From positions 1 to 64,000 of the forward strand of contig CAZQNA010000002.1 in NCBI GenBank assembly GCA_964594835.1: a DNA stretch of 64,000 nucleotides, written 5' to 3'. The notes under the pieces are model-generated. The model was not told where the DNA came from. It worked only from the letters and a program-made list of their open reading frames with translations, and did not search any database. Made by a program: the position numbers and the translations under genes. Source of the stretch: an uncultured Nitrososphaerota archaeon. GTDB lineage: Archaea > Korarchaeota > Korarchaeia > Korarchaeales > Korarchaeaceae. This document shows, piece by piece, positions 1 through 1,385 of the stretch (its first letter is position 1; each line of letters opens with the position of its first letter).

Positions 1-49
1 ATGAGGAGGGATCAACCGGCTGATTGCTGATGACTTTGCCGAGTCCCGA
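1..49 (+). ncRNA. Archaeal C/D box 2'-O-methylation guide sRNA (5' end may lie just before the window)
   Basis: C box ATGAGGA 1-7, 12-nt guide GGGATCAACCGG, D' CTGA 20-23, C' TGATGA 28-33, 12-nt guide CTTTGCCGAGTC, D CCGA 46-49. Guides are complementary to CCGGTTGATCCY (archaeal 16S 5' end) and ACTCGGCAAA (conserved 23S motif). Confidence 0.85.
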
Positions 50-55
50 CCGCCC

Positions 56-83
56 TCACAATATAAGGCCCTTTATAAGGGCC
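56..83. promoter_or_regulatory. TATA-containing palindrome / dif-like site
   Basis: TCACAATATAA-GGCCCT-TTATAAGGGCC: TATAA-N6-TTATA core, plus perfect inverted repeat GGCCCTT-TAT-AAGGGCC (67-83); TTTATAA at 72-78. Confidence 0.45.
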
Positions 84-101
84 CGATCCGGATGGGCGCG
101 A

Positions 102-226
102 ATACCTTTCTTCTCGCGGGAAAGTATCTTCGGGGTGTCTTCCATCGGGGGACACCTCCAGTGGGTTCAGGCGGGTGCCGCCACACCCGCCAAGGGGGTG
201 GCCTCAGGGGCCGCCCCTTTCCCCCT
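102..226 (+). ncRNA. Putative structured non-coding RNA (four consecutive hairpins), family unknown
   Basis: Stems at 102-127, 132-158, 170-191 and 192-220. All 8 non-Watson-Crick pairs are G:U on the + strand. TATA about 25-30 nt upstream, pyrimidine tract downstream. Confidence 0.55.
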
Positions 227-273
227 GCTTGTAAAACTCTAGGAGGAATTTGATCGCTTTGTCATGCGAAACT

Positions 274-783
274 TCACGCCAAGAACTCGTAGAAGCGCCG
301 GAGGTCATTGATGTGGGACTCTACGGCCCTGGGGCTGAGGGTGGGCCTCCCTTCCGGGCCTCTTCCCCTCGAGGGTGAGGTAGTCAGAGAACTCCCGGAG
401 GAGCTCCTTCTCCCGCTGGGTGAGCCTAGGCAGCAGGTCCTGGGGAACCTAGTAACCCAGCTTCAGCATGAGGCGGGAGAACTGGTTGAGGGAGGCCCTG
501 ATATTTGCCACCGTCCTAGGACCATATCTCCCGACGAGGAAGGGGAGGAAAGAATCTCTGGCCTCGATTGAGATTTCCCCGCCGGAGTGCGCTAAGAAGG
601 CGTGGGCGTAGGACAGGTAGGGTCCAGCCGTCGTCCTAGACTTGCCGACGCCCACGAGCTACCCCGATATTGTTCCAAGACTTCTGAGAACTTCTCGGGG
701 TCGAGACGGGTCACTTTCTCGCGGGGGTGTGAGAGTTTCAGGAAATAAGGGACCCTCGGGGGCGGGTCGGAGCCGCGGCCCAC
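274..783 (-). pseudogene. Decayed tyrosine recombinase (Xer/integrase) N-terminal SAM-like fragment
   Basis: Fragments across frames: EVLEQYRG / GVGKSRTTAGPYLSYAHAFL...YGPRTVANIRASLNQF, in-frame TAG at 449, ELLREFSDYLTLEGKRP / LSPRAVESHINDLRRFYEFL*. No catalytic domain. Confidence 0.6.
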
Positions 784-926: not shown

Positions 927-1385
927 GTGGTGAGGATATTGGAGGTGGAGGAGAAGACCTTGGAGATTGCAGAGAGTTTCCTGAAGAGGGCCCACACGAA
1001 ACTCATGGAGGCAGAGGGGTACTTGAAGTCTGGCAAGTACCCAGTGAGCGTGTCGGCTAGTCAGGAGTGTATAGAACTGTCCACAAAGGCCATGTTCTTG
1101 CTGCTGAAGGGGGAGTATCCGAAGAGTCACGAGTTCGATGACGACGAGTTGGCCAAACTCATCGAGAGAGTGCCAAAGGACTTGGCGTACCTTGAGTTCC
1201 CGAGGGTGATCATATTCAATAGGTTCTGGTCCTCCATGTACACTCTGGCGAAGTATGGGCACGACAAACTCGGCTATGGGCCAGAGAGACTCTTCAAGAG
1301 AGGGGAGGCAAAGCTGGCATATGAACACGCAGATGACTGCTACCGCATGGCGAGTCTACTCATGAGTAGGATCAGGTGGAGCTAG
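927..1385 (+). CDS. HEPN domain protein
   Basis: Helical HEPN signature: FLKRA..KLMEAE..L..G.Y..SV...QECIELSTKA...YPKSHE...YTLAKYG. Confidence 0.85.
   Translation: MVRILEVEEKTLEIAESFLKRAHTKLMEAEGYLKSGKYPVSVSASQECIELSTKAMFLLLKGEYPKSHEFDDDELAKLIERVPKDLAYLEFPRVIIFNRFWSSMYTLAKYGHDKLGYGPERLFKRGEAKLAYEHADDCYRMASLLMSRIRWS

Follow-up and report, generated by a model that had tools for sequence, protein, structure and literature searches.

Hairpins at the edge of a decayed archaeal element: a possible cis-antisense control region beside a C/D-box sRNA gene

What do the four hairpins at positions 102-226 of this archaeal DNA do, and do they act as RNA at all? An earlier note on the window (the whole 64,000-nucleotide stretch that we analyzed) had described them as a structured RNA candidate inside a mobile-element remnant, and had offered antisense or copy control, an antitoxin for a nearby HEPN gene, a recombinase-associated RNA and a folded single-stranded DNA signal as possible roles.

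Folding of the hairpin stretch

We found that three of the four stems described earlier hold in the predicted fold (132-158 with 12 bp, 170-191 with 8 bp and 192-220 with 13 bp), and that the linker between the second and third (159-169) is unpaired in the centroid, as had been claimed. The first hairpin (102-127) is marginal: a pairing of 10 bp with a single bulge is possible, but the predicted fold retains only the inner 6-7 bp, and folded alone the hairpin reaches -4.3 kcal/mol. Measured against shuffles, the plus strand of 102-226 folds significantly well (MFE -66.5, z -3.59, 0 of 200 shuffles as good), and the minus strand likewise beats its shuffles (z -2.83, 0/200). Four of 150 random 125-nt windows from the same genome reached z ≤ -3.5 and seven reached z -3 (25 shuffles per window; genome GC 65%). 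A window of 64 kb would therefore hold several such stretches, by chance or from other causes, and folding alone does not single out 102-226.

The argument that strand asymmetry of the non-Watson-Crick pairs reveals selected single-stranded structure had to be given up, although the eight G:U pairs themselves are real (2, 3, 0 and 3 in the successive hairpins). A strand-neutral stem count gave G:T versus A:C ratios of 6:1 here, 31:22 over the nine related cassettes described below and 835:466 in shuffles, a control that ascribes most of the bias to base composition; the asymmetry has p=0.22 for the window, p=0.39 for the nine cassettes and p=0.029 for the original count of eight out of eight.

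TTTATAA is present upstream at 72-78 and the trailing tract TTTCCCCC at 218-225, both as first described. With its start placed by spacing from the TATA-like box, a candidate antisense RNA would span 100-225 on the plus strand, taking in all four hairpins and the pyrimidine-rich end. It belongs to no known RNA class as far as Rfam can tell, since no family reaches its gathering score within the window; over all cassettes none does so either, the best match being sar RNA in genome G021 (E=0.49, 25.8 of 43 bits). No second copy of the cassette was found in its own genome. Covariation could be assessed for hairpin 1, the only part alignable across relatives, where 19 of 20 cells were paired in four sequences, a result equaled by 101 of 500 shuffles and showing no two-sided change relative to the commonest pair; a six-sequence DNA alignment of the cassettes was too poor for a covariance model.

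The island and its attachment site

The window opens with a host C/D-box sRNA gene that the earlier reader had overlooked (1-55, plus strand; box C at 1-7, D' at 20-23, C' at 28-33 and D at 46-49). It matches Rfam family sR14 below the gathering score (E=0.0093), and its D' guide is complementary to the 16S rRNA 5' end, where 11 nt match on contig C4. Contigs from two of four DNA runs (X2 and X4; runs X1-X4 may be the source of the window) carry an island-free allele, in which position 55 is joined to 2916 via 31 other letters. The 3' half of the sRNA gene (24-55, plus strand), the likely attachment core, forms a separate 32-nt high-depth contig with several alternative entries and exits. Because of the joint between 55 and 2916 and the repeat-like behavior of the core, we take 56-2915 to be an island inserted at the sRNA 3' end, comprising a decayed integrative element and cargo. 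The mobile-element remnant claimed at the outset is thus borne out, and the hairpins lie just inside this 2.86-kb island. Empty and filled alleles meet at the shared core (24-55), pointing to site-specific integration at an RNA gene; at the far end of the island a repeat of the core is visible at most as a faint likeness near 2868-2890, and the assembly holds no second copy. Runs X1-X4 also contain other sequences, absent from the assembly, that enter or leave the 32-nt core, and these extra joints likely reflect a second element at the attachment site.

Of 43 genomes of the phylum, 21 contain the sRNA 3' half, at 22 loci altogether (window positions 1-55 plus 21 others, L205-L226). An element-end motif or palindrome stands behind the sRNA at seven of the 22, five with hairpins and two without, marking an integration hotspot; a further regex match to the palindrome, at L219, was judged false. 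G021 has both filled and empty forms, its contigs C17 and C125 sharing the sRNA and diverging behind it, and in G004 the sRNA is followed by an MFS remnant without an island. G001 (L022:5000-6260) and G004 (L019) bear a degenerate second copy of the sRNA located 1 kb upstream. The two copies flank a toxin-antitoxin-like gene pair, and the arrangement may be the trace of an older integration. Contigs C1 and C11 of the genome G000 have nearly identical first 60 bases, suggesting another repeated or variable site.

Six bp from the attachment core lies a dif-like palindrome (61-79, ATATAA-6 bp-TTATAA) whose right half is the TATA-like box and whose pattern matches once in the genome. Positions 61-77 equal the P. 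abyssi dif site at 15 of 17 central bases (dif as given in the accessible part of PMC2958812). The site is kept at element ends without hairpins in G042 and G044, and may serve the integrase. We rejected it as the host's dif: the island-free allele lacks it, so that it is no fixed dif of the host here, and the pattern is no commoner than a control across the phylum. Between the TATA-like box and the predicted RNA start, a shorter palindrome (81-97) is palindromic also in G001, G003 and G007.

The integrase itself survives as a broken N-terminal part without the catalytic domain (279-783, minus strand). Its stretch 356-697, interrupted by two stops, shares 43% identity with an unbroken tyrosine integrase of 392 aa; the latter occupies the same position in G021 and matches Pfam PF00589 (E=1.8e-30). 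Two further arrangements were seen at XerA-like genes: in G000 (C7:13062-13910, L034) the host XerA-like gene is directly followed by a second integrase-like ORF, and in G018 and G009 (L041, L042) a long insert resembling an intein splits the XerA-like gene behind the HxLRH motif, in G009 as an open frame of 702 aa.

Cargo of the island includes a HEPN gene (927-1385, plus strand; Pfam PF05168, E=6.7e-12). Its presence in the same island as the hairpins speaks for the suggestion that they are an RNA antitoxin for it, but we consider this very improbable: the longest complementary run is 8 nt, the predicted duplex (-97 kcal/mol) is weaker than those with all 40 random targets, and ORF lists for the other eight cassettes show no neighboring HEPN gene. 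The cargo also encodes a 460-aa protein with a signal peptide, Thr/Pro linkers and a C-terminal anchor (1423-2805), and the segment 2569-2604 has a relative on contig C1.

Nine cassettes and the genes on the opposite strand

A common layout, in which a TATA-like box is followed by 100-150 nt of hairpins, recurs in nine cassettes from seven genomes. Besides the window's own, a DNA search found cassettes behind the same sRNA in G001, G003:C103, G007 and G021. The cassette of G012:C7, which has no C/D RNA nearby, came from an integrase search. Searching with a profile of the small repressor-like protein described below yielded ten new loci; three of these, which took ranks 1, 2 and 6, have a cassette (G041, G003:C27 and G003:C132). 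This count leaves out a cut cassette from the integrase search (G012:C251), a possible partial one in G005 and the hairpin-less ends in G042 and G044. Among 29 loci from a wider small-protein profile, the five whose cassette lies downstream have fold z-scores between -1.9 and -3.6, G012:C7 has its cassette upstream, and the remaining 23 range from z -2.1 to +1.4 without the end motif, many of them followed by PIN-like genes (judged by eye). In G050 (C57, L232), a PIN-like gene is interrupted by a perfect inverted repeat whose arms exceed 50 bp.

Likeness in sequence to the window cassette is clear only for G003:C103 (69%) and G001 (58%), and the others are tied to it by position; hairpin number, order and sequence vary widely between relatives. 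Two relatives carry one hairpin with an inverted loop, and loop-less palindromes also occur. The cassettes of G003:C103 (z -0.5) and G007 (z -0.9) fold no better than shuffles. RNA folding favors the plus strand in seven of the nine, whereas folding with DNA parameters shows no steady strand bias (plus strand better in 6/9 at 37°C and 3/9 at 65°C). No nick-like loop common to the nine was seen by eye, and no conserved single-stranded motif was found across them besides the complement of the Shine-Dalgarno and start codon described next. In wider collections, a metagenome pattern scan and a genome-contig scan with the integrase alignment each returned one match, the G021 locus again; integrase scans of viral contigs gave matches of only 23-25%, the TATA pattern marked 120 viral-contig loci of which none was cassette-like by fold energy and motif count, one other pattern had no viral-contig match and another had seven, and phage and plasmid collections had none. 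Matches to GGGTCCATACCYC outside G012 lay in coding DNA.

The minus strand of hairpin 2 contains a feature that the earlier reader had passed over, a Shine-Dalgarno sequence (GGAGGTG, 153-159) separated by 7 nt from an ATG (143-145), together spanning 143-159. This combination is found on the gene strand in seven of nine cassettes, compared to one of nine on the other strand and 0.8 expected; the two lacking it are G003:C103 and G007. Shuffles put its chance occurrence at 0.03-0.17 per cassette, giving P=6e-7 for 7/9 and P=9e-6 for five of the six less related cassettes, with a motif set that was chosen after viewing the data. In the mRNA the Shine-Dalgarno is predicted to be mostly paired, with P(unpaired) of 0.21 at 65°C here and 0.19-0.56 across cassettes.

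The reading frame that begins at this ATG, which we call ORF X (56-145, minus strand), has 29 codons here and ends at the attachment core. Equivalents at the same place in G003:C27, G003:C132 and G012:C7 encode 140-152 aa, and where a cassette abuts the sRNA, ORF X enters or stops at the core in differing frames. Over its C-terminal half, the G003:C27 protein is 59% identical to a relative, and no family was found for ORF X. ORF X is not Rep; a Rep-like gene sits three or more genes further along. On the other side of hairpin 2 lies the 3' remnant of a small repressor-like gene (204-278, minus strand), recognized from a family alignment and from DNA that corresponds to the end of the G003:C103 gene, with its stop codon in hairpin 4. 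In seven of nine cassettes such a gene precedes the Shine-Dalgarno and ATG and has its stop codon in the last hairpins, under the (C)TTTCCC tract of the plus strand, whereas in G012:C7 it points away. From its sequence pattern the encoded protein may have an RHH fold; it has a weak match to an unnamed PHROG, and the one member scanned had no Pfam RHH match. The minus-strand order is thus integrase, small repressor-like gene, Shine-Dalgarno and ATG in hairpin 2, ORF X and attachment core.

On the plus strand, in each of the six cassettes checked, the TATA-like hexamer precedes a putative G-A-A start by 21-27 nt; its distance from the ORF X ATG is 72-75 nt in four cassettes (in G001 measured from the second ATG). 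The hexamer falls in differing ORF X reading frames and is therefore conserved as DNA. Scored with a matrix built from 43 tRNA upstream regions (tRNA median about 13 bits), the window promoter reaches 5.7 forward versus 5.2 reverse. Scores in the antisense direction range from -0.5 to 12.4 over the nine cassettes, below most tRNA promoters, and exceed the other direction in five; the cassette promoter lacks the AA of the host BRE. A U-rich end is present on the plus strand in seven of nine.

Further down the ORF X strand, G003:C27 and G012:C7 encode related proteins that join a wHTH to a second domain, for which Rep_trans was hit at 0.86 (a fold lead only). A model of this domain (pLDDT 68) matches TBP (E=1.4e-4) and RepDE (E=4e-3), and a single-sequence fold of the G012 protein was unusable (pLDDT 42). 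These wHTH and TBP-fold proteins are predicted from the models to be rolling-circle Rep-like initiators, a fusion that the accessible part of PMC13107129 describes for archaeal rolling-circle initiators (Rep-Arvir), and they have no match to Pfam PF25227. The Rep-like gene is present at two of the nine cassette loci, others being cut by contig ends or decayed; four more loci have a Rep-like gene and no cassette near it. The family counts six loci in four genomes (including L192, which is G012:C7, and L299, L300, L301 and L302), has no Pfam Rep_trans match either, and is possibly a further archaeal rolling-circle initiator family. The contig G003:C27 (L276, 14,970 bp) is virus-like: its two ends carry similar genes, and it encodes large membrane proteins and a Zot-like ATPase (PHROG 197, E=1e-9). 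It is a candidate for an undescribed provirus.

Explanations for the cassette and comparison with known systems

The explanation we favor, tentatively and at somewhat under even confidence, is that the hairpins are a control region, conserved in a family of archaeal integrative elements, whose plus strand makes a cis-antisense RNA of about 120 nt that limits ORF X translation. The element mRNA would fold and partly hide the Shine-Dalgarno of ORF X, and transcription from the weak TATA at 72-79 would begin near G100 and stop at the U-rich tract around 220. The resulting countertranscript would pair with the mRNA along the entire leader and prevent ORF X from being translated, which would damp the early or replication operon in the manner of RNAII in pMV158. 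On integration at the C/D sRNA, this operon would be cut just after the ORF X start and would be whole only in the excised circle, as in SNJ2. With integrase and repressor broken in this genome, the element is dead and its cassette may no longer act. The antisense role proposed earlier gains from complementarity to the conserved Shine-Dalgarno and ATG and to the 3' end of the repressor-like gene, and loses by the weak promoter and the failed G:U argument. Cis-antisense control fits a layout common to nine cassettes, three of them found through the small protein alone, a cassette fold that goes with the end motif at five small-protein loci, the start codon opposite the candidate RNA and its steady distance from a TATA box kept as DNA, the U-rich ends, the better plus-strand RNA fold free of a steady DNA bias, Rep-like genes in two relatives, and a layout like that of pMV158. 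Against it stand a promoter without the BRE AA that favors the antisense direction in only five of nine, a covariation signal that shuffles equal, the clear sequence likeness of only two relatives, an inverted loop more in keeping with a palindrome in DNA than with a loop in RNA, and the two cassettes that neither fold better than shuffles nor carry the Shine-Dalgarno and ATG. The divergent repressor-like gene of G012:C7, an ORF X that is not Rep, the four Rep-bearing loci without a nearby cassette and the post hoc motif set also weigh against it.

The conserved start codon with its Shine-Dalgarno, predicted to be mostly paired, would also be expected if the hairpins worked solely as a minus-strand mRNA leader that hides the ORF X start, with no antisense RNA made. 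The upstream stop codon in the last hairpins (7/9) suits a variant in which ribosomes finishing the repressor-like gene open the fold, by translational coupling or attenuation, and the minus strand also beats shuffles. Such a leader leaves unexplained the plus-strand TATA-like box, the U-rich end and the better plus-strand fold, and fits G012:C7 poorly, so that we regard it as unlikely though quite conceivable. Rather unlikely, in our judgment, is that the inverted repeats act as DNA, either as a rolling-circle origin (with nick and bind sites, or as a single-strand origin folded in the displaced strand) or as accessory sites for a XerA-like integrase by the attachment core. The folded-ssDNA option remains because relatives carry a predicted rolling-circle Rep, of Rep_trans-like type, alongside the Zot-like ATPase; hairpin origins have been shown for SNJ2 (accessible part of PMC13107129), and the loop-less palindromes, the inverted loop and the dif-like site retained without hairpins point the same way. 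That site, however, is outside 102-226 and may be a separate part, no nick-like loop is conserved, DNA-parameter folding is not biased to the coding strand, the four Rep-bearing loci lack a nearby cassette, and the conserved start codon goes unexplained.

A free-standing structured RNA acting in trans with a protein partner, as a recombinase guide or decoy whose gene overlap is mere compaction, would account for the stable four-hairpin fold and the promoter- and terminator-like ends. It is improbable given how widely the hairpins differ between relatives, the complement of the Shine-Dalgarno and ATG as the sole single-stranded motif, and the absence of an Rfam match. Chance GC-rich palindromes in decayed DNA would fit the random windows that equal the fold and a G:U bias that tracks composition; we regard this explanation as quite improbable, because nine cassettes repeat one layout in the corresponding position and 23 control loci lack it. 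A broader proposal building on the cis-antisense reading is that these elements are an undescribed family of rolling-circle archaeal proviruses with a C/D sRNA gene as attachment site and dormancy held by RNA, which we think unlikely as a whole. Integration would cut the early operon behind its first start codon and put the host sRNA promoter upstream of the cassette, host read-through and the element's countertranscript would together silence the element, and excision would remove the host drive and rejoin the operon.

Antisense control of replicons is textbook knowledge in bacteria and, to our knowledge, thinly documented in archaea. The archaeal plasmid-virus element pSSVx, a pRN-type primase-helicase replicon in Sulfolobales, has antisense RNAs (counter-transcripts) around its copG/rep region, near repA. 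Nine natural variants of a candidate archaeal antisense control are now on hand. We consider the mechanism to be of a known kind, and the element family and integration target to be new. A 2026 survey reports, in its accessible part, no provirus among 124 genomes of the same lineage (PMC13573593), which kinship tables suggest is probably Korarchaeota. The literature searched, which covered few subscription papers, contained no case of integration at a C/D-box sRNA gene: the accessible part of a review on tyrosine recombinases of archaea gives tRNA genes as the main targets and lacks the word 'snoRNA' (PMC8371274), and that of a border-mapping survey counts ncRNAs as 13.5% of RNA targets with types not given (PMC13626063). 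If the hotspot holds up, the known targets of archaeal integrases widen beyond tRNA genes.

Like the tRNA-targeting elements covered in the accessible part of PMC8371274, the present ones use a tyrosine integrase and the 3' part of a stable RNA gene, which stays intact, and differ in that the gene encodes a C/D-box guide RNA. The dif-like palindrome shares its 6-bp spacer with archaeal Xer/dif sites (PMC2958812, accessible part), whereas the outer arm bases of 61-77 differ, and it can also be read as two back-to-back TATA boxes. The SNJ2 pleolipovirus, as presented in the accessible part of PMC13107129, has an integrase-side operon that enters the attachment site and is completed on excision, and a wHTH and TBP-fold initiator, here found in relatives; its hairpin origin is downstream of rep, the target here is a C/D sRNA gene, and the word 'antisense' is absent from that part of the text. 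In pMV158, the copG/RNAII/repB region consists of a small repressor gene and a leader under a countertranscript (accessible parts of PMC12361487 and PMC4485353). The cassette resembles pMV158/pLS1 in this order, in the U-rich end of its candidate countertranscript and in belonging to a predicted rolling-circle element; likeness in sequence to it is not expected. RNAII, however, is one hairpin that blocks Rep itself, and the regulated gene there is the replication initiator, whereas here two to four hairpins extend over 100-150 nt behind an archaeal TATA and face ORF X (140-152 aa), with the Rep-like gene further down. Judged by layout, the cassette resembles a countertranscript system and is not a member of the pMV158 family.
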